Shown here in pieces: positions 6,602 to 63,965 of a stretch of DNA of 63,965 bases. The DNA comes from a virus. Taxonomy: Duplodnaviria; Caudoviricetes. A model generated the notes under the pieces. That model was not told the origin of the DNA and made no database searches. It saw only the letters and a program-made list of their open reading frames with translations. How positions within the stretch are numbered: the first letter of the stretch is position 1; every line of letters starts with the position of its first letter. The position numbers and the translations under genes are program-made. The stretch spans positions 1 to 63,965 of IMG/VR virus record IMGVR_UViG_3300037714_000156; one strand, written 5' to 3'.

Positions 6602-6604
6602 TTT

Positions 6605-7074: not shown

Positions 7075-7078
7075 TTAT

Positions 7079-10840: not shown

Positions 10841-10892
10841 AGATTCAGGATAATTCACTTAACTTTATTCATCAATTATATAGAGGTATAAA

Positions 10893-11264: not shown

Positions 11265-11269
11265 GTTCA

Positions 11270-11878: not shown

Positions 11879-11893
11879 AGTCATAATCTTATA

Positions 11894-12442: not shown

Positions 12443-12445
12443 ATA

Positions 12446-13651: not shown

Positions 13652-13665
13652 ACTAAAAAAGAGAT

Positions 13666-14034: not shown

Positions 14035-14035
14035 G

Positions 14036-14797: not shown

Positions 14798-14800
14798 GCC

Positions 14801-22000: not shown

Positions 22001-25000
22001 CATTCATTGTGAATAATCCAAGCGCTAAGAACTCCCCGAATATTGTTGATGAGGACGGCAACTTAGTTCATACTGCTTTATCCGGTGATAAGAAAAGTAC
22101 AATATTAAGAATCGGAGATTTGGGAAAATACGATTTTGTTCTCAGCACATATTCACAAGTAAATAGCGAGAGGAGCGGATTAAAAAGAAACTTCATAGAA
22201 GATTTAGTCAGAGACAATATTCTTGTTATGGATGAGAGTCATAATGCAAGCGGTGACTCAAACACAGGCGAATTTTTCAGAGACCTTGTTAGAGATGCTA
22301 AAGGGGTGACATATCTTTCGGCAACATTCGCCAAGAGACCGGACAACATGCCTGTTTATGCTGTTAAGACTGCGATCAGCGAAGCCAATTTAACAGAAGA
22401 TGGGCTTGTCGCAGCGATAGAAAAGGGAGGAGTAGCTTTACAGGAAATTCTTTCAACTGATATGGTAGAAGCCGGACAGATGATAAGAAGGGAAAAAAGT
22501 TATGAAGGAATTAAGATTGATTATAAACCATTAACCGAAAAGAAAACAGAGCATACAAAAATAGTAGATAGTGTTACTGAAATTATCCGGGACATAATTG
22601 CTTTCCAAAAGAATCATGTCAACGGAATAGTTGATGCTATGGATAATGATGCAGTCATGGAAGGAGAAAGAATCGGAGTTGAAACAGGAACAAATATGGC
22701 GGGGATTGATAACACCCCATTCGCTTCAAAAGTATTTAATGTAGTTGACCAATTACTCTTTTCACTAAAAGCAGATTCCGCAGCAGACGAAGCAATCGCA
22801 ACATTTAAGCAAGGGAAAAAACCTGTTATAGCAGTTAAGAATACTATGGAATCATTTCTTGATTATCTCGGAGTACAGGTCGGCGATATTATAGAGAATA
22901 CTGATTTCAGTTCGGTTCTTGAAAGAGGATTAAGAGGGATATTCAGAATAAGACGTGTGGATGTAACCGGGGAAAGTACACCGGACGAATTATCTATTAA
23001 CGATTTATCAGAAGATGGAAGAAAAGAATACAAAAGACTTCTTGATAAAATCAAAAGTACAACTGTTGGTATCACCATATCACCGATAGATCATATTATA
23101 TACAAGTTGAACAAAGCCGGATATAAGGTTGGTGAAATTACAGGCAGAGATATAACATTAAAATTCAGAGATGATGGCAAAGCCATAGTTGAAAAACGTA
23201 CAGAGAAAGACAAGAAAAAAACAATCAGAGATTTTAATAATTGGGAAAACCCCGGCACACCAAGAGGAATTGATAATTATACAGAGATGGCATTAATTGT
23301 AAATGCGTCCGGGTCGGCAGGAAGATCAGCCCACTCATCACCGAAATTCAAAGATCAACGCCAGAGGAAAATGGTAACAGTCCAGGTCGAGCTAAACATC
23401 AATACAGAAATTCAGAAGCGGGGAAGAATCAACAGGACCGGACAAGTAAATAAACCTGAGTATGTTACAATAGCAAGTGCTATCCCGGCAGAGCAAAGAT
23501 TGTTGATGATGGCGAAGAAGAAATTAAAATCGCTTGATGCAAACGTATCATCCGATCAATCGCAGGCAGGTACAACATTCGAGGCGAATGATTTTCTCAA
23601 TAAATATGGCGACAGGATAGTAATAGAATATCTAAAAGAGAATCGTGAATTAAATGATATGCTTTTAGACCCGCTAAAAATGAACATAATGAACGAGGAA
23701 GAAATTGAGAAGTTCACCAACAAAGAAAATGCTGCACATAAAGTAACGGGCAGAGTCGCAATACTGCCGACACATTTACAGGAAGAATTCTATAAAGAAA
23801 TAGGATTCAGATATGACGATCATATTGAATATCTAAACTCGATAGAAGAAAATGACCTTGAAGTAAAGATAATGCCCCTGGAAGCAATGACCACAAATAG
23901 CAGGATGATTGTAGCCGGGAAAGGTGGCGTAAGTCCTTTCGGCAGAGATTCAATGTTGGAGACAGCAGAAGTAAACGTCCTGAAAAAACCTTTCCGTATT
24001 GAAAAAGTAAATGAGTTGCTTGATAAATATTTAGATGGTAAAGGGAAAGATGAAAAGAAAAAAGGAATCATCAATGATTTACGAACATTCTGGAAAGGAT
24101 GGACGGAGGAACATCTTAACAGGAAAGTTCAAACCATCGCAAAGGATTTAAGAATAGAAAAAGAAGATGTCGTTAAATATGCTTCGAGAGGATTAGACGG
24201 CTTACCGGACCTGGTAATTAAATATCCACACTTGCTAAACAAAGAAGTATTTGTTGATACGGAGTTTAACAAATACAGACAGTTATCCGAAAGATTGGAA
24301 GCTCAGGGAAATTATGTATTCAATAATATCTTAGACAGATATGATATAGGCAGAGCATATAAAGTCCCACTTGTCAGAGATAATGTTGCCCCTATCTATT
24401 CAAACGGAATATTTTTAGGATGGGAGATCAGCCCAAAGAGAAGAAATCCCTATGCCCCAAGTGCTATCAAGATGAAATTTGCTGTTGCTGATTCCCGACA
24501 GATAGCACAATTCCAAGGTTCCAACAGGGATTGGCTTAATGATATAACGAGTGAAAGCAGTTCATTAAGTGCATGGCAGCAAAAAGATATGATCGAGGAT
24601 TGGGATAACGCTTTGTCCGATCACCGCCGGGAGATTAAACCGATAGTAACAGGTAATATACTTCAGGTAATGGGCGGGAACGATGTTAAGGGAGGACAGT
24701 TAATTTCCTATACGACAAAAGACGGAGGAATAAAAAGAGGTATTCTTATACACGACAGCAAATCAATTGCAGGAACAGACATAAGAGTACCGATTAAGAG
24801 AGCAAGAAAATACATTCAACAATTACCTCTCGGTGATTTTATAGAAAGTTCAGCCGGTGAAATAGTAATTGCTAATACCGGAAATAATTATTGGGAAATA
24901 GAAGTACCCGCAAGCAAAGCAAAGGGAGGGAAATTCTATCTCGATGAAGGAATGAAAGGATTAGTCAAAGACGGAAGATTCGATAAGGTTGGTAATGCAA

Positions 25001-28000
25001 TGAGAGCTGAATTCAAAAGAGATAATCTTGATAAGCTCATTGATATACTTCAGAAAGATTTCGGAATATCCGTAAGACTATCACAGGAACAGATGAGGAA
25101 GATCAGCGATGATGATAACACCTTTCAGTTAAAACCAGGGAAGGCTTATAAAGATGATTTTAATAATAACATTCCCCCGATATTCAGTAAGCATCACGAA
25201 TATAAATTAAGCCATCCATATCTGAAGCATACGGAAGTTGAATTCGCACAGCCCAAGATAGCATTCTGGACGAGAGAACATATTAAATCTATTGGCTATA
25301 CAGACGCTTTTGTTAATACATTACCCAAATTAGAAAAAGGAGATTATGGTTATGAACAAGGAAAAGAAAAATTCGCAGTCGAAATTGCAGGATACTCCGG
25401 CTATGACCCTGAAGGGGGCGGGGCAATCATCATTGTCAGCAGCACAGCGACTCCATCTGCTTATACCGAAGAAATTATCCACACAATCCAGAAAAGACTT
25501 AAAACAGAAAATCCAGAACTCTTACAAAAAATTGAGCAATGGGAATCCATAGTAAAGAAAGAGGGTAAGGAATTCGGAGTAGAGATTCCAGATGGATATG
25601 AAACATTTGCACAAGCAATGGTATTCACTCATCTCGGATATGCAAATGAAAATCCGGATGTTGCTGAAGTATTTGAGATCCCGAAAGACATTCTTGATGA
25701 ATTCACAGCAATACTAAATCTTGGGAAAATATCTTCTGACGTATTAAAAGGAGAATCACAGAGAGGGATAATCAGACTGCCTTCCGGTAAGATTGACAAC
25801 TCATTACAAAACTTCCGGCAAAAACGACAGGGGACAGCGTTACAACTAAAACCGCCGGAAGATAAGAAACTAAGCAGAGCGAAGGGATTATATTCTCAGT
25901 TAAAATCAGAACTTGGAGAGAAAGCAGACGTTTATCCTGAATGGATTAAACAGATGAGAAAGGAATATGGCAAAGAGTTTGATAAGGAGGCGAGAAAAGT
26001 ATGGAAGGATATGAAAGAACCTGCGGGATTAACTGAAAAAGAATTTCAGAAAAAATATTACTCAAGACACATAGATATTCGGGGCAGAGGCGGGGAAGCA
26101 CTTGAGAACATTGAAAAAATAAAAAGAGAAGGATTCCACTCTGTTTATGCAAACGCATTGCCAATGGGCGTAGGAGAAGGAAAACCGGGTACGGAAACTA
26201 TAACAGACAAACAATATTCTGTTAGAAAAGGCGATGTAGTTTACCTGATTCCAAAAGAATATGTGCTGAATATAGGGACATCAAAACCGGAAAAAATAAA
26301 AGCAGGATGGAAGCCGAAAGACGAAGATATAGTAATTGCAGAATATGATAAACAACCATTATATGAACTTTACAAAAAGAAGTTTGAGCAACAATCATCA
26401 CACCAACTCAAACCTGCGTCCAAAGAATTAATCAATAAGGTCGAAGCCAAAGGGTTGATGATAGATCAGAACCTTGTTGCGACATATAACATAAAAGGTG
26501 AGCCGAGAGAATTCATATCAGTCAGTACACCTGGTCCGGGGCGGAAGCATACCTTATCTTTAGAGGTCAGCAAACTTGACGATGAATTAAAAAAATTCAC
26601 CGGAATAAAAAAATCAATGTTGCTATCTCCGAATGAGATATTATTAAATAGTAAAGGCAGATTCCCGACTCCACTTGCCATAGCAGAAGCCAAAGAAATT
26701 CTCAAAGATAAGTTTGACTCGGAATACCAGAAATTCAGGGAGGAGAATAAACCGCCCAAAAATTTCGATTTAATTTTTGAAGAAGGATTAATCTTAGAGA
26801 ATTTTGCCCGGAAAGTTGTTGCAGCAGATAAACTTGGTATAAAAGATATTAATGCTGATTTGTGGAGTGAGGCGACAAAGATTGAGCGACCAGGAAAATC
26901 AGCCTTCCAACTCAGGAAACCAAAGAAGGACCGGTCCGAAAAACTATTAGGTAAGAAAAAAGAAACAGAAATAGCCAGAGAACAGAACCGGGAACCCGAG
27001 AGCGGAGAAGGTAACGTAGTTGATTTCGGAGTTGGGTTAGGTCAGGTATTTACAGTCACGGCGGATAAGATAAATGATTTTATCAAGAACAACAGGCTTG
27101 AAAAAGAATTAGGAATAGAAGGAGACCCAAAACTAAGAAAGTTATACCGGGAATTTCTTACAGCTCCCCAATGGTTTTTCGATAAAGAACCGCAGTTGAA
27201 AAGAATATGGGATATTGTTGACAGACACTTCGTAAGAAATGTTAATGAAGAAACTGCAATCCTCAGAGAAGATAAATGGCAGAATGGAAAGCCCTGGAGA
27301 AAATTAAGCGAAACAGAGAAAACCGAATTCTTGTCTGCACTAAAAGAATATGAGCAAGTTCAATATGAACTTCAAAGAGACGGCGAATCTCTTGAGTTAC
27401 TTGATTGGGCTGATTACGCAGATGAACATGCTCTGACACCGGGAGTAACAGAATTATTATTCAATGTTTATAAACCTGTAATTGAAACCGCTCTTGATAT
27501 GGTTAAAGATGTTGACCGATATAAAATCATCAATGAGACGAAAGTAAATCCATATCTTGAAAATTACTACATAGCAAAAGAGAGCGGTGCAAGACAGGAA
27601 TTTCTTGATAACACATTAGAGAAAGCGAGAGAAGAATTCTTTAATGACGACCCTAATGCGGAAGCCCTTTACGAAAACGAATTATTAAGGATGGCAACGG
27701 GGAAAGCAGATCCGGTCAGAGCCTTAGAGTTAGCTTGGGGGAACAATCCAAATTTAAGAGAGACACTTGCAGAAGTATTAATCGGTAAGAAATATGAGAA
27801 GATAGACGGCAAAGTTTATTTCCCATCATCAAGATTAGAGAATAAATATTTCCTAAGTGCAATCAAGAAGTCAACGCCTGAAGAAAAACTTATTGAGGGA
27901 ATACAGGATGATAAATTCTTCACAACGAATAATAGCCTGGCAAAGCTGAACACTATAAAAGAGGAATTAGAAGCTCAGGGATATGACACTAAGGTAGGAA

Positions 28001-30294: not shown

Positions 30295-30326
30295 TACCTA
30301 ATCAGCATTTAGAAAGGAAACAGTAA

Positions 30327-31022
30327 ATGATACGATACATACAGAAAGACGAACCATTAAATATCAATCACTATGCACTCGAAGGTGGTGACAGTTCCTC
30401 CGGTAACTCTCCTATACAAATAAAAGTATTACCATTCAAAAGCTGTTATCCTCACAATAGAGGAGAGTCCTTCAAAATATGGGAAAGAATAGCTTGCGTT
30501 TGTTTCCCGTATGACATATATCATTCAATAAAATTTGATGAAATGGAATTCGGGACTCAGAAATATATTCCCGAATATACAGTAAATCATTGGGTGCAGG
30601 GGAATGGTGATTTTGTTTTTACTTCTAAGACAGGAAGAAACTTATTCAGGCATGATAAAGCCGTCGAAGCCATTATGAAAGTTCTGAAAGATACAATCAT
30701 CCCGGAGATCAACAACATAATAAAAATGAAAGCGGATCTTACGAAAATGATGGAATGCTTCCCCGATTTGCTGAAAGACAAAGAACTATCGGGGATTAAA
30801 TCAGATATTATGAACATAAAAGATTTTGTCGGATGGTTCCCAAAAGATTTTCCTCTCGACAAAAATGATTCATTGATGAGTGCTTTTGCCAAAATGGATG
30901 AGAGGTTTGCGAAGGTAGAAAAACAAGTAAACGATATTAACAAATACCTTGACTCTGAGATTCCGGTTATTCTGCCAACAAAACCTCCTCGTATAATAAA
31001 GAGAAAGAGAGCAGGGAAATGA
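30327..31022 (+). CDS. Hypothetical early protein, possibly regulatory
   Basis: 231 aa, AGAAAGGAA RBS, C-terminal coiled coil. Confidence 0.6.
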   Translation: MIRYIQKDEPLNINHYALEGGDSSSGNSPIQIKVLPFKSCYPHNRGESFKIWERIACVCFPYDIYHSIKFDEMEFGTQKYIPEYTVNHWVQGNGDFVFTSKTGRNLFRHDKAVEAIMKVLKDTIIPEINNIIKMKADLTKMMECFPDLLKDKELSGIKSDIMNIKDFVGWFPKDFPLDKNDSLMSAFAKMDERFAKVEKQVNDINKYLDSEIPVILPTKPPRIIKRKRAGK

Positions 31023-32770: not shown

Positions 32771-32956
32771 CACCATAGGGCTTAACGGGAAGCCCAGAAA
32801 GGAAGCAAATGAAATATTATAAGATTAAATATAGTTGCGGATGTGAGTATGAAGGGCACAATCCATCATCTCCAAGATGCCCTTCAGACCATAATTCCAA
32901 TATTGTAGAATATGCCTGGGAGGATGATAGCTTGCCCGTTGAAGCCAAAGTTAGCA
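32765..32956 (-). mobile_element. attC-like site A, inverted; loop holds the RBS and 5' end of ORF 32809
   Basis: GCATAAC...GGCTTAACGGGAAGC pairs with GCTT(G)CCCGTT(G)AAGCC-aaa-GTTAGCA; two unpaired bases 6 nt apart. Confidence 0.75.
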
Positions 32957-33179: not shown

Positions 33180-33221
33180 TGCTAACATTCAGATGAACCT
33201 TGTTCGATCTGATAGTTATGC
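33180..33221 (-). mobile_element. Minimal attC-like site (resident insertion platform)
   Basis: TGCTAAC-at-TCAGATGAAC-ctt-GTTC(G)ATCTGA-ta-GTTATGC; GTTATGC is complementary to GCATAAC at 32765. Confidence 0.7.
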
Positions 33222-33255
33222 GACTAAAAAAGTATAAGAAAGGAAACACAACAAA

Positions 33256-33456
33256 ATGAAAAAGCAGACATCAGTAAAAAAACAATTTAAGAAATTGTTG
33301 GATGACACAATTAGGTCTGCGGAAGAATATGGCAGTAAAAAAGAAACCAAAGAAATGGCGACAAATTATATAGCAGGGGCTTTAAGCATACTTAAATGGA
33401 ACAAAAGGAAATTGAACACATTTGTTAATAAAAATTTTCTAAGGAAAGTAAAATGA
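33256..33456 (+). CDS. Hypothetical protein
   Basis: 66 aa, AGAAAGGAA RBS. Confidence 0.6.
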   Translation: MKKQTSVKKQFKKLLDDTIRSAEEYGSKKETKEMATNYIAGALSILKWNKRKLNTFVNKNFLRKVK

Positions 33457-39367: not shown

Positions 39368-39884
39368 AAAGAAATCACTTCACGAATGGTTTCCGACAAA
39401 TTCAGAATGGAGTAAGCAGTTCAATGAAACGGATCTCGAGTACCATCCATTTTGTACCGGGATATTCGCAAATTTAGAGGCAGCGAAAAGAGAAAAATTC
39501 CCTAAAGAAACAATGAGGGTATGGTTCATTGAATTTGTAAAGCGGGGATGGACAAAGAAAATGCTATTGAAAAGATATGAAGCATTATTAGCAAAACCGA
39601 TTTTCGGGAAGGAGAATTTGGAGTTTGCTGATTGGGTTAATGCTGTCCCTGTTTATGCGGAAGATGAAATGAGTAGCATAGTTAACCGGCGAGTAGATGC
39701 GATAATCCAAAAAGGACAATTCCTTAAAGACAAGAAAGTAAAATTGACGGCGGAAGATAAGCAAGCAATTGAGGCAGCGATAGCGATGGAGATCGCCTTC
39801 AAGTATTCAAACAACAGATACGAACTCTTGGATAATTATAAAGCACTCAGGAAAGAAAAACGATTGAAGGAATTAAAGAAATGA
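39288..39884 (+). CDS. Hypothetical replication-associated protein
   Basis: Overlaps the initiator 3' end by 80 nt with an MEQIG start. Confidence 0.55.
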   Translation: MEQIGSKIGEVLTSISTSKKPTQSLSKKKSLHEWFPTNSEWSKQFNETDLEYHPFCTGIFANLEAAKREKFPKETMRVWFIEFVKRGWTKKMLLKRYEALLAKPIFGKENLEFADWVNAVPVYAEDEMSSIVNRRVDAIIQKGQFLKDKKVKLTAEDKQAIEAAIAMEIAFKYSNNRYELLDNYKALRKEKRLKELKK

Positions 39885-39969
39885 CAGTTGTTATAATAGC
39901 GTTAATTTGCGTTACCATTATATCTATCGTTGGTCTGATTTTAATTTATATGGATGGGAGGAAAAAGAA

Positions 39970-40275
39970 ATGAAAGCAGAAGTAATATTTCTGACGGAAG
40001 AAGATTTAATAAATAATTTTACAAGCCATTGGTTAGAGTTTGTTATTTACGCCCGATCAGAAAAAACCGTAGCAATTAAAGTCAGGAACAAAGAGGAAAA
40101 CCAAACCATTGGGATAATCGCCTGGTATAAAGAATTCAGAGCTTACGCCTTTAGACCGTTCCCATCAACAGTTTTTGAACGTGTATGTTTGCGGGATATT
40201 ACAAATGTTCTTGAGGAACTAGAAAAAATCAGGAAAGGCAGAATAACAAAGCGAAGGAATAAAAATGAAAGTTGA
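39970..40275 (+). CDS. Hypothetical protein
   Basis: GGGAGG RBS before ATG 39970; IGIIAWYKEFRAYAFRP...CLRDI. Confidence 0.6.
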   Translation: MKAEVIFLTEEDLINNFTSHWLEFVIYARSEKTVAIKVRNKEENQTIGIIAWYKEFRAYAFRPFPSTVFERVCLRDITNVLEELEKIRKGRITKRRNKNES

Positions 40276-42112
40276 CATAGGGATAGAAGTAAATCTTGAA
40301 AGGCTGATCGAAACAAGATTGCTCATCCAAGCAAACTCAGGCGGAGGGAAAAGCTATGCAATCCGGAAACTGCTTGAAGCGACACACGGAAAGGTTCAAC
40401 AAATAGTTCTTGATCTTGAAGGAGAGTTTTCATCACTCAGGGAAAGGTATGATTTTATTTTATTCGGAGAGCAGGGAGATTACCCGGTCAACATAAAATA
40501 TGCAGAGAAAACAGCGAGAACATTACTTGAATTAAATGTATCAGCTATCATTGATCTGTATGAACTTAAACATCACGAAAGGATTACATTCGTAAAGCGG
40601 TTTCTTGACTCGATGATAAACGCACCAAAAGGTTTATGGCATTCCTGTTTGGTTGTAGTTGATGAGGCACACATATTCTGCCCGGAGAAAGGACAGTCTG
40701 AAGCGATGGGATCTGTAATTGATCTAATGACGAGGGGGAGAAAAAGAGGTTATTGCGGGATATTGGCTACTCAAAGATTATCTAAACTACATAAAGATGC
40801 AGCAGCAGAAGCGAACAATAAGCTAATCGGACGTACCGGGTTAGATGTTGATATGAAACGAGCGGGAGAGGAATTGGGGTTCACAAGTAAACAGGATATG
40901 CTTTCATTAAGAAACTTATATCCGGGAGAGTTCTACGCCTTCGGTCCGGCGATAAGCAACACAATCGAATCAATAAAAATCGGGAAGGTATTCACAAGCC
41001 ATCCAAAAACAGGAGCAAGAATAACTGCGGTTCCACCTGCAAGCGAGAAGGTGAAAAAAGCACTCAGCAGAATTAAAGAACTGCCGGAAGAAGCTGAAAA
41101 AGAATTGCAGACAATCCAGGATTACAAAAAGGAAGTTCATTCATTGAGAGGGCAGTTAGTCCAGGCAAAGAAACAACAGCCGATCAATAGTGGGTATGCT
41201 ATGAAATATCAAGAGATTATTACAGGACTTAGGGAAGAAAACAAATTATTAAAATTTCAATTAACGGAACTCAAAGGATTCCAGGATAAAATAAAGATGG
41301 CGGTTGTTATTCTTGGAAACCATGCTATGTATTTAAGCACTAAAGTTGTAGATCAGATACAGAGCAAAGCAAACGATATAAAAAATGTTGTTGAAGACCT
41401 CACCAATATCAAACCGCCAGAACTGAAAAGAGCAAAGAATGTAAGAATAGACGTTCAACAACTTGACCCTATACGATTGTCTGATACAGAACATATTAAG
41501 AGAGAGTTTGTCAGCCGAGAAGAATTAAAGAAAAAATATCCGATTGCTGTTATTCCTGAGATTAAGCATAATCGAGAAGCATCAATTTTTAGAAACGCAT
41601 TGGATAAAACCGAAGGGAGATTTTTTGTTAGCGAGAATAAAGAAATTAAACTCCGGGAAGGTGCAAGACGTATGCTTGCTGCATTGGTTCAATGGAGCCC
41701 TAACGGAATGACCGAAGGGATGATGAGAAGCCAGGCAGGGCTAAAAAAGAGCGGGACATATTCAGCCTATAAAACAGATTTGAAGAACGCAGAATTCTTT
41801 CATGAGAGTAATGGACTATTCTATGCAACACGGGCAGGAATAGAATGGCTCGGACACGACATCCCATCACCCGCAACGACACAGGACGTTCTTGATGTAT
41901 GGAAACCAAAGTTACGATTAGGAGCGAGAAGGATGCTCGATGTATTGATTAGTTACAACGGGGAATATATTACAGACGAACAATTGTTAAGCGAAGCAGG
42001 ATTGAGTAAATCCGGGACATATAGTGCTTACAAGACGGATCTAAAAACAGCAAACTTAGCGATAGTCGAATCGGGGAAGATTGCTGCAAACAAAGAGACA
42101 TTATTTTTATGA
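40265..42112 (+). CDS. HerA/FtsK-like (DUF87) ATPase with coiled coil and two C-terminal wHTH-like repeats
   Basis: QANSGGGKS, LDLEGEF, VVDEAH, RGRKRG, ATQR; duplicated KLRxGARRML...GLxKSGTYSAYKTDLK. Confidence 0.85.
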   Translation: MKVDIGIEVNLERLIETRLLIQANSGGGKSYAIRKLLEATHGKVQQIVLDLEGEFSSLRERYDFILFGEQGDYPVNIKYAEKTARTLLELNVSAIIDLYELKHHERITFVKRFLDSMINAPKGLWHSCLVVVDEAHIFCPEKGQSEAMGSVIDLMTRGRKRGYCGILATQRLSKLHKDAAAEANNKLIGRTGLDVDMKRAGEELGFTSKQDMLSLRNLYPGEFYAFGPAISNTIESIKIGKVFTSHPKTGARITAVPPASEKVKKALSRIKELPEEAEKELQTIQDYKKEVHSLRGQLVQAKKQQPINSGYAMKYQEIITGLREENKLLKFQLTELKGFQDKIKMAVVILGNHAMYLSTKVVDQIQSKANDIKNVVEDLTNIKPPELKRAKNVRIDVQQLDPIRLSDTEHIKREFVSREELKKKYPIAVIPEIKHNREASIFRNALDKTEGRFFVSENKEIKLREGARRMLAALVQWSPNGMTEGMMRSQAGLKKSGTYSAYKTDLKNAEFFHESNGLFYATRAGIEWLGHDIPSPATTQDVLDVWKPKLRLGARRMLDVLISYNGEYITDEQLLSEAGLSKSGTYSAYKTDLKTANLAIVESGKIAANKETLFL

Positions 42113-45067: not shown

Positions 45068-45252
45068 CAGATTGGGCGATAATTTGCCGCCCAGAAAGGA
45101 ATAAAATATGGCACTTGACTTAAAAGAATTGGAACGGAAATTAGATGAATGCTTGCAAAAAGAGACGCCCGAAAGTTTGCGAGAATGGTTAAATAAAAAA
45201 CGTGCAGAAGAAAAAGAAGCAGATGGCGGTCAAATTGATTGCAAAGTTAGTT
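45062..45252 (-). mobile_element. attC-like site C, inverted; loop holds the RBS and 5' end of ORF 45108
   Basis: TTATAAC-agattgggc-GATAATTTGCCGCC pairs with GGCGG(T)CAAATT(G)ATT-gcaaa-GTTAGTT. Confidence 0.78.
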
Positions 45253-48198: not shown

Positions 48199-48243
48199 CA
48201 AATTAACAAAACACACATACACAAAACAGAAAGGAACAACGCT

Positions 48244-55899: not shown

Positions 55900-56138
55900 A
55901 AGAATTCGCAACACAAATCATCACCCGCATGATAGATCACCCGAAAGAATTGAAGATCACCGAAGAAGAAGTAAAAGAAGATAGCAGTATTCTTCTGAGA
56001 GTATGGGTCAATGCTGATGATGTTGGCAAGCTGTTAGGAAGGAGGGGCGGAAACATCCAGGCGATAAGAACAATATTGAAAGCAGTAGCATCGAAAGATT
56101 TGAAGAAAAGATTAGCATTAAAATTGGCGGACGAGTGA
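55896..56138 (+). CDS. khpA: KhpA-like single-KH-domain RNA-binding protein
   Basis: MIDHPKELKI, VNADDVGKLLGRRGGNIQAIRTIL with intact GxxG loop; 80 aa. Confidence 0.88.
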   Translation: MKEFATQIITRMIDHPKELKITEEEVKEDSSILLRVWVNADDVGKLLGRRGGNIQAIRTILKAVASKDLKKRLALKLADE

Positions 56139-56683
56139 TATTTTATTGCATCCCTTATAGCACAAACGGAAGATTATTCCAGGCATACAACGAATACGCA
56201 TCATTAGTAAAAGACCCCAATGATTATATATGTTTCCTTGATGGCGATACAATGTTCCTCGTAAAACATTGGGGACACGTAATCGAAAGGTATGTGAAAG
56301 AATATCCGGACGCAGGACTTTACACCTGTTACGCATCAAGATGCAGTTACCGGGCACAGATCCCGAAACACGGAGATAACACTAACCCCAATCTGAATTT
56401 TCATATCGGGGTAGCGAAACTTCTTAATAGAAAACACTCGTTGAAATTGGGAGTTAAATATCTGAACAGAAGAATAGCCGGACACCTGATGATGATTAAA
56501 AAATCTACATGGGACGAAATAAAAGCAGATGTAGCAAAAGAAGTTGAGGACCGGGACAAAAGAATACTTGGAGTTGACACCATAATATCCAGAGCAATAT
56601 TAAAACGGGATAAGAAAATTCTTGTGATGAGAGCGGTTTATCTTTTACATTTATTCAGGCTTGACGGGAGGTTATACAGATGA
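56135..56683 (+). CDS. GT-A fold glycosyltransferase
   Basis: DYICFLDGDTMF DxD motif; C-terminal YLLH. Confidence 0.7.
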   Translation: MIFYCIPYSTNGRLFQAYNEYASLVKDPNDYICFLDGDTMFLVKHWGHVIERYVKEYPDAGLYTCYASRCSYRAQIPKHGDNTNPNLNFHIGVAKLLNRKHSLKLGVKYLNRRIAGHLMMIKKSTWDEIKADVAKEVEDRDKRILGVDTIISRAILKRDKKILVMRAVYLLHLFRLDGRLYR

Positions 56684-57612
56684 AAATTTTAGTAGCGAAT
56701 CATTGGCTGAAAAAAATAGGCGGAAGCGAAACTTTTACTTATGCTCTCGCAGTTGAACTCAGGAACCAAGGTCACGATGTAGATTTCTATACTTTCGAGG
56801 AAGGAATAGTTTCTCAAAGACTGAAAGCTCAGGGAATAAAGCTGAGAGTACAGGAGAGCTATGATCTTGTTTTAGCGAGTCATTATACCTGCGTTAATTA
56901 TCTTCACGAAAGAGGATATACAATCCAGACGGTACACGGGACGACACCACGATTAGAGAGACCTAATGTTAAAGCGAATCTGCTTGTTGCAATATCAATC
57001 GAGGTTAATGACCACCTGAAGAAAGAGTATAATTACACAAGCAGAGTGATTTCAAACGGAGTTGATTGCGAAAGGTTCTCACCTAAGAAAAAGATAAAGA
57101 CACCGGGACTGCCGGAAAGAGTCTTATCGTTATGCCAATCCCAAAGATTAAATAATGAACTTGAAAAAATATTTAAGAAACAGAATATTCTTTTCCTTTC
57201 CCTGAATAAATTTCAAAACCCCGTATGGAATGTAGAAGATCACATTAACAGTTCCGATATGGTGATTTCAATAGGCAGAGGAGTATTAGAATCAATGGCT
57301 TGCGGAAGACCTGTTGTAATACTTGATGAAAGAGATTACCAGGGATTGATGGGAGACGGATTCCTCACGCCGGGAATGTTACTCTTTTCCTCGCAGTATA
57401 ATTTCTCAGGAAGATTTGGGAAGCGGGTTGACGTAGCGGATATAATTTCAGAATCTCTCTATCAGTATAACATCACAGCAGAATCAATAACTCATTTTCT
57501 TAGAGGGATGGCACTAACACATTACAACATAACACATCAGGCAGCAAAATATTTGGAGGTATTCAATGAGCATAACGCCAAAGGAAAAGTACACTCAGGA
57601 ACAATTTCTTGA
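56680..57612 (+). CDS. GT4-like (GT-B) glycosyltransferase
   Basis: MKILV...GGSETF, ISNGVDCERF, LESMACGRPVV. Confidence 0.85.
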   Translation: MKILVANHWLKKIGGSETFTYALAVELRNQGHDVDFYTFEEGIVSQRLKAQGIKLRVQESYDLVLASHYTCVNYLHERGYTIQTVHGTTPRLERPNVKANLLVAISIEVNDHLKKEYNYTSRVISNGVDCERFSPKKKIKTPGLPERVLSLCQSQRLNNELEKIFKKQNILFLSLNKFQNPVWNVEDHINSSDMVISIGRGVLESMACGRPVVILDERDYQGLMGDGFLTPGMLLFSSQYNFSGRFGKRVDVADIISESLYQYNITAESITHFLRGMALTHYNITHQAAKYLEVFNEHNAKGKVHSGTIS

Positions 57613-58225
57613 AGCATTAAAAGACCCGGAAGTAAAGCATCTGAAAGACCGGGAAGTATTCAAAGGTTTTTATGACAGACTCGGAGAAATGGAAGTTCAG
57701 AAGACTCAGGATTATAAAGAATGGAGAATGGACTTCATTAAGATGGGAACGCCGAATATCTTCGATCAGGTTATTGAACTTGGTTGTCATGCAGGATTTA
57801 ATTTAATACACTATGCCAGGTTGGGATATAATGTTACGGGAGTTGATGTATCTACTTCTCTGATCGAGTTAGCAAAAGAAAAGATATCAAAAGAATCACC
57901 CGATGTCAGAAACAGGATAACGCTCGTAAATGCTTTTATTGAAGACCTCCCGGACAGCTTTGATGTGAAATACAAATTCGCAATCATCACAGAAACATTG
58001 GAACACGTTCAAGACCCGCTCAGGATTTTGCAGAGGACTACCAGATTATTAACAAGGAAAGGGATTGCTTTTATTTCAGCTCCATCCACAAGAACAGGAC
58101 TATACAACCACGTACGGGGGATTAATCCTGCCGAAATGAAAAGACTGCTTATCAAGGCAGGACTTACCGTAAATCAAATTTGGGTCAAAAGAAAATTAAC
58201 ATTTGCAATGGCAGTTAAGAGATGA
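57566..58225 (+). CDS. Class I SAM-dependent methyltransferase
   Basis: VIELGCHAG, VTGVDVS, ETLEHVQDP. Confidence 0.88.
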   Translation: MSITPKEKYTQEQFLEALKDPEVKHLKDREVFKGFYDRLGEMEVQKTQDYKEWRMDFIKMGTPNIFDQVIELGCHAGFNLIHYARLGYNVTGVDVSTSLIELAKEKISKESPDVRNRITLVNAFIEDLPDSFDVKYKFAIITETLEHVQDPLRILQRTTRLLTRKGIAFISAPSTRTGLYNHVRGINPAEMKRLLIKAGLTVNQIWVKRKLTFAMAVKR

Positions 58226-58944
58226 TAATCGGAATTACACGGGTGAGGAATGAAGAACATATCATCACCGATACGCTTAACCACGTTTCAGAATTAGTTG
58301 ATATGATATGCGTATATGATGATGCTTCAACAGACAGTACAGTAAAGAAGTGTCATGAGCATCCGAAGGTACGGCACGTAATAGTAAATACATTATGGGA
58401 GAAAGAACCGGCGAAAAGAAGATTGCTCGAAGGAACGCAAAGACAAAAACTTTATCAGGCAGCATTACCTTTTAACCCTACCTGGATTTATTACTTCGAT
58501 GCTGATGAGTTCGCAGACTTCAAAGGAATTGATTTCAAAGCAGACGCATACAAGCTGAGACTGTTTGATTATTATATCACCGAAGAAGATAAGAACCTGG
58601 ATTACAGATGCAGAAAATGGATAGGACCGGAATACCGGGACATCACTATGCTATTCAGACCTTATCCGGGAATAAGATTCACAAGCAGAGTACCGAAACT
58701 TCCAAACCATTATAAAGTAGCAACGCAAGGATCTGTAATGCACTTTGGTAAAGCCATTTCAATAAAGCATTGGGAAGAAACCTGCAAGTATTATATTCAT
58801 CACCGACACCCGGAAGGAAAGAAGTCAGTAGAAAAATGGAAGGGAAGAATAGGTAAAGCAGTTCACACCAAATCAGATTTCGGGAATGATTTAATAAAGT
58901 GGAACGAAAGAGAAACAAAAGGAATAAAGTTAAATGAAGCCTGA
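58222..58944 (+). CDS. GT2 glycosyltransferase
   Basis: RVRNEEHII, YDDASTDST, YFDADEF. Confidence 0.88.
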   Translation: MIIGITRVRNEEHIITDTLNHVSELVDMICVYDDASTDSTVKKCHEHPKVRHVIVNTLWEKEPAKRRLLEGTQRQKLYQAALPFNPTWIYYFDADEFADFKGIDFKADAYKLRLFDYYITEEDKNLDYRCRKWIGPEYRDITMLFRPYPGIRFTSRVPKLPNHYKVATQGSVMHFGKAISIKHWEETCKYYIHHRHPEGKKSVEKWKGRIGKAVHTKSDFGNDLIKWNERETKGIKLNEA

Positions 58945-59656
58945 CATAGTTTACTTGTTTGCGATGGGGCATACTTTCTGGAGAGACCAGGAGCTGAGAT
59001 ACAGTTTGCGATCTTTAGAAAAACAGGGAGAGAATTATGGGAACATTATTCTTGTCGGGGATAAACCGCCATACCTGAATGGTAAGATCATACACATCCC
59101 GCAAAGTGATAATTCCCTGCATTGCCACGAAAGAAGGATATACGAAAAATTATTAGTTGCTTGCAACACGCCAGAGATAAGCGACCCGTTTATATTTTTC
59201 AACGACGATTATTTTTTAACCAAGCCGATAGACTTTTCCAATATCGGTTATTACTTCAGTATAAATATCGAAGATAAGATTATCAAAAGATCTCGCAATG
59301 ATTTGTATAAAAAAACAATGCGGAATACATTCGCAGTTCTGAAAGAGAAGGGATTAAAAACCCGGTACTTTGATATTCATTACCCGATGCAATACTATAA
59401 GAATAAATTTATTGAGGCGATGAAGAAATATGATTGGGAAATAAATGCCGGTTACTTAATAAAATCTCTTTACGCAAACACTCTCAGGATAAAAGGAGAG
59501 AAGCGGAAGGATTATAAAATAAAAAACAATTTAAGCAAAGATGAACTAAAGCGGTTGATAATTCTGACTGATTTATTCAGCACGGAAAAAATTTACAGAA
59601 ATACGGCTGAATATCTTGTAAAGAAATACAGGGCTAAATCATCATACGAGGAATAA
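58934..59656 (+). CDS. Stealth-like sugar-phosphotransferase
   Basis: DIVY, ELRYSLRSLEK, FIFFNDDYFL motifs. Confidence 0.75.
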   Translation: MKPDIVYLFAMGHTFWRDQELRYSLRSLEKQGENYGNIILVGDKPPYLNGKIIHIPQSDNSLHCHERRIYEKLLVACNTPEISDPFIFFNDDYFLTKPIDFSNIGYYFSINIEDKIIKRSRNDLYKKTMRNTFAVLKEKGLKTRYFDIHYPMQYYKNKFIEAMKKYDWEINAGYLIKSLYANTLRIKGEKRKDYKIKNNLSKDELKRLIILTDLFSTEKIYRNTAEYLVKKYRAKSSYEE

Positions 59657-59662
59657 AAGAGT

Positions 59663-59692
59663 TTGACAATTACCAAAAATATTCTATGTTTA
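59663..59692 (+). promoter_or_regulatory. Putative promoter upstream of the structured RNA and head genes
   Basis: TTGACA-16 nt-TATGTT(TA). Confidence 0.6.
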
Positions 59693-59695
59693 CAT

Positions 59696-59881
59696 CCTGT
59701 ATGTGTTCCTTTCTTAATGCTTAGGTCGGTAGAGGAGAATTTTAACGATTTTCTTCTACCTTCCTCTGATAACGAGGACAGAAAATTTTGATTGACCCTG
59801 AGTAATCAGGGGTAAAAAATCGTAAGACGGTTGTTTGTTTTGGATAATGGGAGAATCCAGGACTAACAACCGTTTTTTTTT
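59696..59881 (+). ncRNA. Candidate structured sRNA or leader, ~185 nt, four hairpins, 5' anti-RBS segment
   Basis: Non-coding gap; stems 59728-59760, 59762-59778, 59796-59811 (GTAA loop) and 59824-59876 followed by T9. Confidence 0.55.
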
Positions 59882-59904
59882 AATCTAACCCTGGAGTAAT
59901 TAGA

Positions 59905-60231
59905 ATGGTTGACAAAACCGTTAAATCAAAGGTTGCTCAGAAACTTAATCTCGCAGGAGATATTCACGATGCTAAAATACAAACCTCGATCAGCCAGGTA
60001 AAAAAAGTAGATGGAAAAATATCAGCATCTTTTGAAATATCCGGTCTGCCTACAAAGAAAGAAGGGGGCTATTCAGATTCCTACAAATCAATTCCAAAAA
60101 TATTTGACACAATAGAAAAGTTTGCAGAATACGCAACAACATTTTTCAATGCAAGTGATGATGAAATAATTAAAATGTGTAAAGCCTCTTATTCATCTGA
60201 CTCCAATTCACCAAAGGTGAGCAGATATTAA
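59905..60231 (+). CDS. Hypothetical head-module protein
   Basis: GGAG RBS; 108 aa. Confidence 0.65.
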   Translation: MVDKTVKSKVAQKLNLAGDIHDAKIQTSISQVKKVDGKISASFEISGLPTKKEGGYSDSYKSIPKIFDTIEKFAEYATTFFNASDDEIIKMCKASYSSDSNSPKVSRY

Positions 60232-60708
60232 TTGGGACAATTTAATAATCAATTAAAAATGTATAGGTCAGCTATGCCGGATAAAAAACCGAAAAATATT
60301 AACAACAAACTCGCAAATGAGTTTGAATCACGTGAGAGACACAGGGCACAGTCTCAAGGGAATGTGTTCGAGGGATTAGGCAAAGTAGAACAGCCAAAAA
60401 TGAGAATGATGAGAACACATACACGGAAAACGATCACTCAACCATACATTCGACCATTGAGTGAACCGAACAATAACAGAGTCAGAAGCCACGAAGAAAT
60501 ATCCGCCCTTGATAAAAAATACAGACCGAAGGGTGACGTGAATGCTTCTAAAAATGTTTTCACGAATATTAAGAAATCAGCAGACAGCAAAGGCAACAAA
60601 GGCTACCGCAAAGGACCCACGATAACAGGGAATCCGTCAGACCTGGAAAAAGATAAATTAAAAACGAAATTCAAGCAAAACAAAGTCAACAAAATATTAG
60701 GGTACTAA
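60232..60708 (+). CDS. Basic, low-complexity head-module protein (possible internal DNA-binding protein)
   Basis: K/R/N-rich 158 aa; N-terminus resembles that of the major capsid protein. Confidence 0.6.
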   Translation: MGQFNNQLKMYRSAMPDKKPKNINNKLANEFESRERHRAQSQGNVFEGLGKVEQPKMRMMRTHTRKTITQPYIRPLSEPNNNRVRSHEEISALDKKYRPKGDVNASKNVFTNIKKSADSKGNKGYRKGPTITGNPSDLEKDKLKTKFKQNKVNKILGY

Positions 60709-60709
60709 A

Positions 60710-62173
60710 ATGACAGACAGTTATTCCAAAGTTCACGGCAAAGAGGAAATTTACTTCGATGAAGATAAACGCATGAAGGCAATCGAAGAATTAGAAGATC
60801 CGAAGGAGATTGACGCTGCCTTAGAAATCCTGGACGAGAAAATTGGTGAAACCTTAAAAGATGAGGACACTTCACCAAGCGAATCAGAAACCCCCGATGA
60901 AGAACTTTCTCCCGAAGAAAAAAAGGAGAAAGAGGGTGAGGACACTTCTGGTAAGCAAAAAGAAAAGGATGATAAAGAGCAGGGCGAAATAAAGAAGGAC
61001 GATGCTAAAGATGATCTCCATCAAAAAATTGCCGACAAACTTGAAGGTAAAGAATCCGGTAAAGCAGGAGATAAATTTCTTCTAACAGAAGACGTTATCA
61101 ATAGTCAGCCGGAAGCAGACAGGAAAATTCTCATCAACTACAAAGACAAAGACAAGGCAGAATTAGCGAAGTCCGCAGCAAACGCAATCGCTGTTAAGTC
61201 TCCTTATTTGAAAGACAATGAGGAAGCTATCAGCTTGCTTGCGAAACAACTCGAAAGCAAACCAGAAGCGGAATTGTTAAAAACGCTTGTTGATGTTCAA
61301 AGAGAAGCCGGGAAGGCTGAACCCGCTCAGGAGAAAGAACAGATAGTGGAGGATATTGAACTCCCCGATCTGACCGACTCCGATCCAAAAATAAAAGTAA
61401 TATTAGAAACGGAAACTTTGAAACGCCTTAAAGCAAGTTATCCGAATATGCCTGATGTTACTTCTATGGATAGTGAGGAATATAAAGAGTGGAGACGAGA
61501 CCAAAATGTTGATAATCCTGATAACACCTTCAAGGACGACTTGGAATCAACGAGAGAGGATGTAAAAACTGAATTATCAAAAATAGTTTTCATCCAAAAT
61601 AATCTGCCAAACTTATTTGAAGAATCCCCGATAGAAGTTCTACCAATGCTCACGCCGGAGAATCTCCCACGTCTGAAAGCTCTTAATGATAATCCTATGG
61701 AATTGTTAGTCAATGACATCAACACAGAAATAGTGACTATAAAAAAGGGATTAGAAAAATATGGACTGACCGAAAAAGATTTGAATATTGATCTCACAAT
61801 AACCAAAGATGCAGACGGTTATCCGTATAACGAAACCTTAAATAGTCTTGTCTCTGAAGGATTAACAAGCGATGGGAAACCAATCCCAAGCCCTAAAATA
61901 ATCGGGCAGAGAGGAAATGTATTCTGGCTGAAGCAGGGAGAATTAGCAAAGAAGTTCAAAGATGAGTATGACGATAAAATCCTTACGGCTTTTGTTAATA
62001 AAAAAACACAGACAGATAAAAAGGTCAAGGAAAAATTAAAGGAAGAAACACTCATTGCGGGGACAGGTAAAACAAAAAGCGGAAGCGGAAAAACCATCAC
62101 GCTTGAAGACATTGAGAAAGAACAAAATCCGGCAGTCATTGATAAAATGATTGCTCAGTTAGAAAAAGTATAA
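60710..62173 (+). CDS. Capsid scaffolding protein (putative)
   Basis: Highly acidic and helical, directly upstream of the capsid gene. Confidence 0.65.
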   Translation: MTDSYSKVHGKEEIYFDEDKRMKAIEELEDPKEIDAALEILDEKIGETLKDEDTSPSESETPDEELSPEEKKEKEGEDTSGKQKEKDDKEQGEIKKDDAKDDLHQKIADKLEGKESGKAGDKFLLTEDVINSQPEADRKILINYKDKDKAELAKSAANAIAVKSPYLKDNEEAISLLAKQLESKPEAELLKTLVDVQREAGKAEPAQEKEQIVEDIELPDLTDSDPKIKVILETETLKRLKASYPNMPDVTSMDSEEYKEWRRDQNVDNPDNTFKDDLESTREDVKTELSKIVFIQNNLPNLFEESPIEVLPMLTPENLPRLKALNDNPMELLVNDINTEIVTIKKGLEKYGLTEKDLNIDLTITKDADGYPYNETLNSLVSEGLTSDGKPIPSPKIIGQRGNVFWLKQGELAKKFKDEYDDKILTAFVNKKTQTDKKVKEKLKEETLIAGTGKTKSGSGKTITLEDIEKEQNPAVIDKMIAQLEKV

Positions 62174-62204
62174 TTTTAATTTTAATCAAGGAGTTTAATT
62201 AACT

Positions 62205-63503
62205 ATGGGAAATCTAAATCAAGAACTAAGGATGTACCGTACGGCTTTATCGAAGAAACTCGGTATGAGCCAATGGTTTCAGATCCCGGTTTGGGGTGAT
62301 CTCATCGGTCACATCGGCGGGATGAATGAATACGGTTATCCACGTTCAGTACCTTATGGTGCGACCAAAGGTAGAAAACTAAAACCAACAGGTAAGGTAG
62401 TTGAAGTTTTAACCGACTGGTTCCATCAGGGCGGTTGGGATATTGACATACCAATGTTACTGCCATTAACAGAAGACCCGGTTGTTGGAGACGATCAGGC
62501 GAAAGGCAACGAGGAAGATAGAAAGTGGGTATATAATAAAGCGTACATCACTCAAGTCAGAAAACCTGCTAAAATCTCCGACGGGGCAATGGGTGATCTT
62601 GCTATCAATCCTGACTATCTAAAGCAGATGTGGAATAACCTTCACAAAGATTTTTCTGAATTTAATATGCGGTTACAGGCGTACAGTCCGTATGATGCAA
62701 TTTACAGAGGGTTCGATAATCAGCTTATCAGAAGCAAAGAACTTCCTGATTGCGTTCAGAAATCTCATCCAAACTTCTACATAGAAGGTTTCGGGAAAGT
62801 TCCTTACAACGCCAACAACACCACCTATGAAACAGCGATTGCAGCACAGCTCGCTAACTTAGGTGCAGAGGATAAAATGACAATGAAGACTCTCCGGAAA
62901 ATGCAAATGGCTGCAAACGAACACATGATAGTACCGCCGACAATGACAGTATTAGGACATCAGATAAAAGGTATTTGCATTATGAACGACAGACAGTTCG
63001 CTCAGCTTGCCGAAGACCCGTTGTTTGAAAAAGTTCATATCGCCCTTATCACTAAGGACGGAAACCAGGCAGCACTTTTCACAGGTGCTTATGAAGTACA
63101 CCTCGTCGAGGGAGTTCTAATCCTGGTTGATGTGAATAATCCTGGTATATGGTTAGCCGGTGATGATCCTGCCTATGACGCAACAAAAGGAATAATCAAC
63201 TATGGAAATCCGCATCCATTAAAAAACCCGGTTCATAACTCAGACATAAAAGTTGCGATCTTCTTAGGAGCATCTGCAATCCTTTGTGGAACAACAAAAC
63301 AATTGCAGTTCAAGAATGAAACTGACGATTATGAGAATGTTCGAGGCGAAGCATCCATCACAGTCGTAGGTTATAACAGAGCAGACAGAATAAATGCCGA
63401 CAGAAAAGTTCCTGATGCTGAACACATCCTGAACTCAAGTTCTTTGGTTGTTGCGACATACACACCACAGAACATTGCATGGCAGACTCAGCAAAGTTCG
63501 TAA
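62205..63503 (+). CDS. Major capsid protein (N4 gp56/DUF4043-like)
   Basis: 432 aa; PVVGDDQAKGNEE, ALFTGA, AIFLGASA, FKNETDDYEN; AAGGAG RBS. Confidence 0.8.
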   Translation: MGNLNQELRMYRTALSKKLGMSQWFQIPVWGDLIGHIGGMNEYGYPRSVPYGATKGRKLKPTGKVVEVLTDWFHQGGWDIDIPMLLPLTEDPVVGDDQAKGNEEDRKWVYNKAYITQVRKPAKISDGAMGDLAINPDYLKQMWNNLHKDFSEFNMRLQAYSPYDAIYRGFDNQLIRSKELPDCVQKSHPNFYIEGFGKVPYNANNTTYETAIAAQLANLGAEDKMTMKTLRKMQMAANEHMIVPPTMTVLGHQIKGICIMNDRQFAQLAEDPLFEKVHIALITKDGNQAALFTGAYEVHLVEGVLILVDVNNPGIWLAGDDPAYDATKGIINYGNPHPLKNPVHNSDIKVAIFLGASAILCGTTKQLQFKNETDDYENVRGEASITVVGYNRADRINADRKVPDAEHILNSSSLVVATYTPQNIAWQTQQSS

Positions 63504-63555
63504 TCAAAAAAATTGATTAAATAATATTGATAAATAATAAAAGGAGATTTTAATT

Positions 63556-63882
63556 ATGGCTAAATTAGGTAACAGGGCAACCTGGGGCGTACTGATAACG
63601 TCAGACAGACCACGGGATGTGCTAAAAATATCAGAAGAAACAGAAGCCACATTGGACCTGGTTGCCGGACTCAATGGTAAAAACCAAGCAGGAGAAAACA
63701 AACAACTGATTATTATTGTTCATAACGGCTCAGTTGCTCCTGTTCTGACAGATTACCCGGATGTCCCGGTAGGCACATTAATCCTCACTCCCGGAGTGAG
63801 CGTAATTTTCGGTTATCAACGCATTGTGAAATCTGCGGACGATGCAACCGATTGGAATAAAATAGCAAAGGCAGCCGTATAA
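63556..63882 (+). CDS. Capsid decoration/minor head protein (putative)
   Basis: 108 aa after the capsid gene; AAGGAG RBS; followed by a terminator. Confidence 0.55.
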   Translation: MAKLGNRATWGVLITSDRPRDVLKISEETEATLDLVAGLNGKNQAGENKQLIIIVHNGSVAPVLTDYPDVPVGTLILTPGVSVIFGYQRIVKSADDATDWNKIAKAAV

Positions 63883-63965
63883 AATAGTAACCGGCTAAAA
63901 TCAATTTCAGGACTCCCGCTCTGCTATTGCGGAAGCGGGAGTTTTAATAAAAGGACAAATACATT
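63839..63965. repeat. Second copy of the terminal overlap
   Basis: Identical to 1-127. Confidence 0.95.

Follow-up and report, generated by a model that had tools for sequence, protein, structure and literature searches.

Organization of the gap ahead of the head genes

The DNA analysed here, called the window throughout, spans 63,965 bp, bears terminal repeats and is a complete phage record (IMG/VR record IMGVR_UViG_3300037714_000156). Directly ahead of its block of head genes lies a 248-base non-coding gap (59657-59904, + strand), which contains no open reading frame (ORF) of 60 or more amino acids (aa). An earlier note on this DNA, made from the letters alone, had placed in the gap a late small RNA (sRNA) that would be antisense to the ribosome-binding sites of early genes. 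The self-contained unit that it described, with a TTGACA promoter, a structured body of hairpins and a strong terminator ending in nine T residues (T9), is indeed seen in the sequence.

The promoter, P1 (59663-59692; this and all other window features are on the + strand), consists of TTGACA at 59663-59668 and, 16 nt on, TATGTT / TATGTTTA at 59685-59692. It is of the TTG-N-TAnnTTT type and scores 10 matches out of 12 against the consensus. This type is described as known for Flavobacterium and as near that of Chlorobi (10.1101/172254), and the type reported for the Bacteroides lineage is alike (PMC7366714). Genome-wide, the pattern TTGnnn-N16-18-TAnnTTT[GA] has only four + strand matches, and just two of them, at 30006 and 59663, have TTGACA and fall in non-coding DNA. 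The promoter at 30006 lies directly 3' of a giant gene and opens the early region.

Transcription from P1 would start near 59697. The predicted RNA begins with a pyrimidine-rich 5' tail (59697-59727), a candidate seed whose core, TTCCTTTCT, occupies 59706-59714; the segment for which the earlier note claimed pairing is exactly 59702-59726. The tail is followed by hairpin HP1 (59728-59760; 14-bp stem, 5-nt loop), a small CCTC/GAGG hairpin of 5 bp (59762-59778) and the HP2 module (59790-59821), in which GATTGA precedes a CCCTGA/TCAGGG hairpin and GTAAAAAATC follows it, the hairpin standing inside a short outer helix. The unit is closed by an intrinsic terminator (59824-59881) with a stem of about 21 bp (59824-59876) and the T9 run (59873-59881), which ends 23 nt 5' of the first start codon of the head block (59905). 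This is the strongest + strand intrinsic terminator in the window genome, and the same holds for its counterpart in each of the six genomes scanned.

For folding, the candidate RNA was taken as the 186-nt stretch 59696-59881. Its minimum free energy (MFE) is -62.9 kcal/mol (z -5.0), and none of 200 shuffled sequences is equally stable. The fold also includes a weak 5' hairpin. The CCTC/GAGG hairpin is present in one MFE fold; in another, its place is taken by pairing with the 5' tail. Altogether, the sequence predicts a short non-coding transcript bounded by its own promoter and an intrinsic terminator, the arrangement expected of a trans-acting sRNA.

The RNA has no counterpart among known families. 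In the Rfam search that the earlier note had suggested, no Rfam 15 family reached its gathering threshold anywhere in the window, and a permissive scan of 59500-60050 yielded as its best hit PhrS, with 16.6 bits (E 0.068; threshold 37) and no common structure. ARAGORN finds neither tRNA nor tmRNA genes in the window. Two other assignments were ruled out. HP2 could be read as a second promoter (TTGACC-17-AAAAAT), but the spacing of its flanks varies among homologues and a transcript starting there would still include the terminator. A role at the DNA level (pac site, genome ends) was considered as well; the window ends carry a 127-bp terminal repeat, and this is not in the gap.

Conservation and covariation of the putative RNA unit

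Protein-guided searches retrieved 17 viral and 7 genome loci. Nineteen distinct loci, counting the window and taking L022, L023 and L024 as one, have sequence 5' of the head block; some 40 capsid relatives known only from Logan/ENA assemblies lie outside this comparison set. Loci with two names are L017 (G001), L032 (G007), L016 (G006), L028 (G008) and L034 (G003).

A non-coding gap of 150-280 nt precedes the head block in nearly all 19 loci. Folds read by eye place a hairpin followed by a T-run no more than 40 nt from the start codon that opens the head block in 14 of them and somewhat further off in L026 and L034, the feature being not clear in L021, L025 and L035. The full layout of the window (promoter, CU-rich tract, hairpins, terminator) is found before the head block in L017, L032, L016, L014, L028 and L031, the last with fewer hairpins, and only partially in L026 and L022. 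In the same gaps, TTG-N19-21-TAnnTT occurs in L017, L032, L016, L014 and L028, and in L031 as judged by eye. The CU-rich tract keeps its position in all six, and hence in 7/7 homologues with the window, while its sequence drifts.

Whole-gap MAFFT alignments proved unreliable: MAFFT with RNAalifold returned no consensus pair for HP1 or HP2, because the stems fall out of register. The stems of HP1 and HP2 were instead compared in register with a custom script. In this comparison, which is biased to pairing because each stem is set by its own fold, all 30 stem cells of HP2 pair in six sequences, with four of the five stem positions varying. In the terminator, 96.8% of the cells pair in seven sequences, against 80.8% in shuffles; 8 of 14 pairs show double changes, none of 500 shuffles reaches its score, and slid controls gave 29-62% pairing. 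When the 3' arms of HP2 were swapped among sequences, no more than 25 of the 30 cells paired in any of 265 derangements. HP1 has an equivalent in 6/6 homologues, in the form of a hairpin of -16 to -21 kcal/mol and unrelated sequence (z -5.5 to -10.2). Covariation across relatives had been put forward in the earlier note as a check, and it turned out in favor of the unit, which is conserved in place and has compensatory changes in both the terminator and HP2. These comparisons suggest that the gap likely holds a conserved, structured RNA unit of a new family, and we consider it probable that a discrete RNA exists.

The conservation could have another source. HP2 (GAT.GA, hairpin, ATAATCG.AAAT) might be the conserved core of the locus, acting as the binding site of a phage or host protein or as a processing signal, with the 5' tail secondary. 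HP2 is the most widely kept element, being found in the window, L017, L032, L016, L026 and L022; its flanks, GAT.GA and ATAATCG, are conserved to 43% capsid identity (the capsid proteins of L026 and L022 are 43-52% identical to that of the window), and L022 and L026 lack a CU tract in the corresponding position. Five of six genomes have a single + strand copy of HP2, always in the gap. However, L014, L028 and L031 retain the CU tract and the terminator and have no recognizable HP2, the module has no known partner protein, and no Rfam family, self-cleaving ribozymes included, matches it. We regard this explanation as very improbable.

In three more distant relatives the slot of the RNA unit is occupied by a tRNA-Met (CAT) gene (L025:4017-4090, L029:3756-3830 and L030:3752-3826), with a terminator 3' of it in L029 and L030. 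This fits a site where short RNAs are expressed. A further variant is seen in L027 (4270-4370), where the gap has no CU tract and carries the direct repeat GGTAATTCGATGAAAAGAAGCC twice, about 80 nt apart, before the terminator.

An anti-Shine-Dalgarno-like tract in the 5' tail

The seed core at 59706 is the sole + strand reverse complement of AGAAAGGAA. The latter has seven + strand copies, five of which stand just before start codons of early genes (30311, 32796, 33237, 45093 and 48228), and the variant GAAAGGAA is found at 46191; all six positions agree with the ribosome sites given in the earlier note. That note had also contrasted two classes of ribosome sites, early and late. Sites of the GAAAGG type are indeed confined to early genes (7/36, against 0/47 of the others; p 0.002). 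The complementary claim, that GGAG/GAGG typifies late genes, is less firm (7/36 early against 18/47 other genes; p 0.09).

The 3' end of 16S rRNA in an Ignavibacteriales genome that has a related prophage-like locus is CACCTCCTTTCTAAAG. CCTCCTTTC(T) occurs exactly in L016 and L028, and the window has TTCCTTTCTTAA. Judged by these sequences, AGAAAGGAA is an extended Shine-Dalgarno (SD) sequence and the CU tract of the 5' tail is an anti-SD look-alike.

Complementarity to early start regions

Complementarity was assessed in the 83 start regions of the window, with 530 gene-internal windows for comparison in the k-mer test. The query for duplex prediction was 59693-59727, and target windows extended from -35 to +20 around each start.

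Six of the 83 start regions contain at least nine contiguous bases complementary to the candidate RNA (ORFs 30327, 32809, 33256, 45108, 47032 and 48244), and all six belong to early genes. Shuffles average 0.58 such regions (p 0.002), and only 2 of the 530 gene-internal windows qualify. The best predicted target is the start region of ORF 30327 (30295-30345), where a duplex of -33.2 kcal/mol comprises 29 pairs in four blocks and extends from -32 to +18. It includes the pairing of 5 plus 15/16 bases that the earlier note had described for this leader. One of 250 mononucleotide shuffles and none of 250 dinucleotide shuffles reached this energy, nor did any of 500 shuffles tried against ORF 30327 alone. 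ORF 30327 encodes 231 aa, comes second among the ORFs that follow the early promoter (30006) and is the first sizeable early gene; its protein has no PHROG, Pfam, PDB or Atlas assignment.

The second predicted target is the start region of ORF 33256 (33221-33259), with a duplex of -27.0 kcal/mol, a value attained by the second-best match of shuffled queries in 2/250 and 1/250 cases. ORF 33256 (66 aa) and the start of the Erf-like recombinase gene (33453) have 4 nt in common. The third-best duplex is at -20.0 kcal/mol. Matches of 11 nt were confirmed at 33235 and at 48228-48238, the ribosome site of a primase-like gene (48244), and 9-nt matches are found at 32796 and 45093. At the latter two sites, before ORFs 32809 and 45108, G+C-rich hairpins abut AGAAAGGAA (32778-32804, GGGCTT..AAGCCC; 45075-45101, GGGCG..CCGCCC); these could be a processing or stabilizing element of early messages.

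Predicted target pairing in relatives

The same analysis was applied to the four relatives with long sequence. In G001, whose capsid protein is 66% identical to that of the window, 7 of 79 start regions have a k-mer match (p <0.001). The erf gene of G001 has, 7 nt ahead of its start, a perfect complement of 15 nt; a match of this length is found genome-wide in only 1 of 300 shuffles. The seeds of the window and G001 RNAs differ, and each pairs best with the start region of its own erf operon. The window RNA reaches -27.0 kcal/mol there, against -12.9 to -15.4 on those of three relatives, and the G001 RNA reaches -27.6 on its own and -13.9 to -23.3 on the others. In three genomes, the window, G001 and G007, the primase-like gene has a start region that pairs with the RNA of the same genome (p 0.036, 0.012 and 0.002); this group was picked post hoc.

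Two observations concern the erf genes themselves. ORF 33256 (33256-33270) and G001 erf (58891-58905) share their first 15 nt, and the erf gene of the window does not begin until 33453, 197 nt further on, an arrangement which suggests that the recombination module was rearranged at its head. In G007, the match to the erf homologue (G007:C15:19012-19563) was reported with one in-frame TGA; the ORF call is open at 39837-40430 (reverse-complement coordinates), and the TGA may lie at the edge of the match.

A possible anti-ribosome-site sRNA for a few early genes

The reading that we prefer, tentatively and at a little under an even chance, is that the gap is a small-RNA gene whose product acts in trans against the ribosome sites of a few early genes, rather than of the whole class. 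From the anatomy, conservation, covariation and complementarity described above, we infer the following scheme. Host RNA polymerase would start at the Bacteroidota/Chlorobi-type promoter (59663-59692) and stop at the terminator (59824-59881), yielding an RNA of about 185 nt composed of the pyrimidine-rich 5' tail, two conserved hairpin modules and the terminator hairpin. The tail would be antisense to early ribosome-landing sites, its main partners being ORF 30327 and ORF 33256, which leads into the Erf gene, with shorter seed matches in ORFs 32809, 45108 and 48244. Pairing would cover the SD sequence, and for ORF 30327 the first codons as well, so that ribosomes could not load.

Several results weigh against this scheme. 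The seed would be only partly free: its mean probability of being unpaired in the predicted ensemble is 0.44 for the window, and six homologues span 0.10 to 0.91, three of them lying between 0.10 and 0.28. Any strong SD sequence will find a pairing partner in a CU tract that is like the 16S tail, and part of the complementarity to ribosome sites stems from this likeness, without regulatory design; duplex energies track those of the 16S tail (Spearman 0.48). With narrower target windows (-30 to +10) the best duplex falls to -24.1 kcal/mol (p 0.07-0.09). The median duplex at start regions (-13.8) equals in effect that inside genes (-13.7), and duplex energies do not separate early from other genes (p 0.16). 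In relatives, k-mer enrichment is absent from three of the four, namely G006 (1/62), G007 (1/63) and G008 (1/78), the best duplexes are marginal (p 0.025, 0.06, 0.14 and 0.10, with 80 shuffles each), and in G006 and G007 the RNA does not pair best with its own erf start region. Target energies show no correlation over 41 ortholog pairs of the window and G001 (Spearman 0.12, p 0.45). Finally, the small p values are optimistic, because the limits of the query, the sizes of the target windows and the groups of orthologs were settled in the course of exploration.

These data narrow the original proposal. Complementarity beyond composition-matched chance stands for the window, in k-mers and in the best duplex, and for G001 in k-mers; it is absent from the k-mers of G006, G007 and G008 and, in the window, weakens when target regions are narrowed. 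Silencing of an entire class of early mRNAs finds no support, since only ORF 30327 and ORF 33256 pair strongly. The designation of the RNA as late is likewise unsupported, and nothing marks it as such: P1 and the promoter that opens the early region at 30006 are of one host type, and the terminase and portal genes lie upstream of the gap, which is therefore not the boundary between early and late genes.

Alternatively, the gap could be ordinary operon punctuation. The terminator would then end the early/middle operon that starts at 30006, the promoter would re-start transcription, and the hairpins would stabilize or process an RNA without any regulatory role in trans or in cis, the complementarity being that of any CU-rich sequence that meets purine-rich leaders. 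The + strand is indeed purine-rich, with 197 purine runs of at least 10 nt against 11 pyrimidine runs, the 5' tail among the latter, and even shuffled queries of the same CU-rich kind attain about -24 kcal/mol in their best duplex. The failure of the k-mer result in three relatives and the median pairing fit as well. However, the promoter precedes the terminator, so that a re-start would be cancelled. Moreover, punctuation would not account for HP2 flanks and compensatory stem changes maintained to 43% capsid identity, for a CU tract kept in all seven homologues, or for k-mer enrichment (window and G001) and best duplexes that beat composition-matched shuffles. We consider this explanation improbable.

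The terminator and transcription of the head genes

A peculiarity of the locus is that such a strong terminator stands immediately before the head genes. Since no promoter-like motif is present between it and the capsid gene, that gene could be reached only by read-through, and the head and tail genes would need polymerase to pass the strongest terminator of the genome. The gap might be a terminator-gated leader of the head operon, following the logic of the PR'-6S RNA-tR' unit of phage lambda, with the promoter at 59663 as the head/tail operon promoter. Most transcripts would terminate, leaving the RNA as a by-product, until a factor renders the polymerase terminator-resistant; the hairpins, or the CU tract as a boxA-like site of the NusB/NusE type, would load this factor, and the complementarity to early ribosome sites would be incidental. 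The order of elements in the window, where promoter, short leader and terminator stand immediately ahead of late genes that lack a promoter, is that of a lambda-type leader, and the recurrence of a hairpin and T-run close to the head block in most of the 19 loci speaks for this explanation. The same succession of terminator, SD sequence and ATG is repeated before ORF 128: the terminal repeat (63839-63965 = 1-127) contains a terminator-like hairpin, GGACTCCCGCT..AGCGGGAG, and then TTTTAAT, about 20 nt before this ORF.

TGTTCTTTGAAAGA, which we take to be boxA, is present in the rrn leader (L038:1380-1425) and in the 16S-23S spacer (3440-3456) of the Ignavibacteriales genome whose 16S rRNA end was compared above. 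Its 11-nt core is found exactly in the L030 gap at 3834, just 3' of the tRNA-Met, with one mismatch in L026 and with two in L014, L028 and L031; GTTC stands at the start of the CU tract in the window, L017, L032, L031 and L014. However, the gap of the window itself has no match to the core GTTCTTTGAAA at up to two mismatches, such matches being found in 5 of 18 gaps. The nearest boxA-like stretch in the window gap, TGTTCCTT, has by eye seven of eight bases in common with the first eight of the host motif.

Other results speak against a leader. Among the 48 window proteins scanned (PHROGs 39, Pfam 20, overlapping; about 35 small ORFs lay outside the scan) there is no Q-, N- or other antiterminator family. 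With terminase and portal genes upstream, the late genes as a whole do not begin at the gap. The arms of the terminator are paired with a probability of about 1 in all seven homologues, where no structure competes with it as in a riboswitch or attenuator; this excludes a self-contained attenuator, and not factor-dependent antitermination, so that any control of the terminator needs a factor. Lastly, a leader leaves unexplained the 15-nt match in G001 and the 29-bp match in the window at start regions. On balance, the leader reading appears rather unlikely, but it is the main rival of the sRNA reading.

The sRNA and leader readings are not mutually exclusive. Transcripts that read through the terminator would probably also serve as head-gene mRNA, because the interval from the terminator to the head genes accommodates no promoter, and damping of early genes by the sRNA would thereby be tied to head-gene transcription. 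Carried further, this leads to a speculative scheme to which we attach a low probability: a family of leader-sRNAs in phages linked to Ignavibacteria, in which the terminated RNA would mimic the 16S tail and shut early genes, and the read-through product would be the head mRNA. The 5' tail would co-evolve with the start regions of its own phage (first early gene, erf operon, primase). Shut-off would grow with the number of genome copies and hence with the RNA dose, so that the switch from early to late expression could do without a protein regulator.

Comparison with known systems

Few phage-encoded small RNAs are known to act on the phage's own genes, and in the literature searched none was found described for phages of the Bacteroidota/Ignavibacteria lineage. 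The nearest parallels to the sRNA reading are the c4 RNA of P1 and P7 (icd-ant) and the sar RNA of P22, which acts on ant; in each, a short phage RNA pairs with the start region of a phage gene and blocks expression. Full repression of ant is stated to require the C4 antisense RNA (PMC8198154). The candidate RNA gene is set apart by its distance of about 26-30 kb from the predicted targets, by a promoter and a terminator that belong to it alone and by the possibility of more than one target; c4, in contrast, is cut from a transcript of the operon that contains its target, and sar is made from the strand opposite to its target. No relation in sequence or Rfam family links the candidate to either.

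GibS, an sRNA of Bacteroides thetaiotaomicron, is described as pairing around start codons through a long single-stranded 5' seed and as ending in an intrinsic terminator (PMC7366714). The candidate shares with it the promoter type of the host lineage, a putative 5' seed directed at start regions and the terminator end. GibS differs in being chromosomal, in regulating metabolic genes and in having no sequence likeness; in the candidate, the seed is an anti-SD-like CU tract and the gene belongs to a phage, directly before its head genes.

In lambda, with PR'-6S RNA-tR' and Q, and in HK022, with put RNA, promoter-less late structural genes directly follow a unit made up of promoter, structured RNA (about 190 nt) and strong terminator. 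The unit in the window has the same order, but no Q-like gene was found among the 48 proteins and the terminase and portal genes are upstream. In T4, RegB and RegA inactivate early mRNAs at or near the SD sequence; these are proteins, whereas the candidate would attain the proposed outcome by RNA base pairing. In Firmicutes, the C/U-rich sRNAs RsaE/RoxS and RNAIII use pyrimidine motifs to pair with the SD sequences of several mRNAs. They differ from the candidate in being chromosomal, from another phylum and of other folds, and none of them matched it in Rfam.

If the sRNA reading is correct, the locus would be a compact and testable example of early genes being shut off by an RNA whose seed copies the anti-SD tail of the ribosome. 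Even without a role in trans, the position of the strongest terminator of each genome, which across this phage group stands 20-35 nt ahead of head genes without a promoter, points to an unrecognized read-through or antitermination step in late transcription.

Genome context and probable host

All long ORFs of the window are on the + strand, and its G+C content is about 38%. The head block (59905-63882) encodes proteins of 108, 158 and 487 aa, the capsid protein (62205-63503) and another protein of 108 aa. The tail genes lie at 128-16003 and are followed by the giant gene (16003-29967) for a polyvalent-type protein of 4654 aa with inorganic pyrophosphatase, helix-turn-helix, methyltransferase and Sbno-like helicase domains. 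G001 has an ortholog of 4645 aa, and proteins of this kind are carried by some phages. A phage RNA polymerase hidden in this protein was considered and ruled out on the basis of these domains.

Replication and recombination genes occupy 30-49 kb (two exonucleases, the Erf-like annealing protein, a helicase, a replication initiator, a NinG-like protein and the primase-like protein). The small and large terminase genes and then the portal gene lie at 49.6-54.4 kb. A sugar-modification cassette (56.1-59.7 kb; 56135-59656) encodes GT4, an S-adenosylmethionine-dependent methyltransferase, GT2 and a Stealth_CR2-like protein, the last scoring 32.1 bits, under the Pfam cut-off of 39.4. The last cassette gene adjoins the gap in G001, L014, L016 and L032 as well.

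In the cultured-phage collection, neither the DNA of the region nor the capsid protein has a match, and the portal protein has distant matches only (21-26% identity). In four of the seven genome matches, capsid relatives are on contigs of metagenome-assembled genomes labelled Ignavibacteriales/Ignavibacteriaceae; the host is therefore probably of this lineage. One of the relatives, L034 (46% capsid identity), lies inside an Ignavibacteriales contig of 2.17 Mb, which suggests an integrated prophage.

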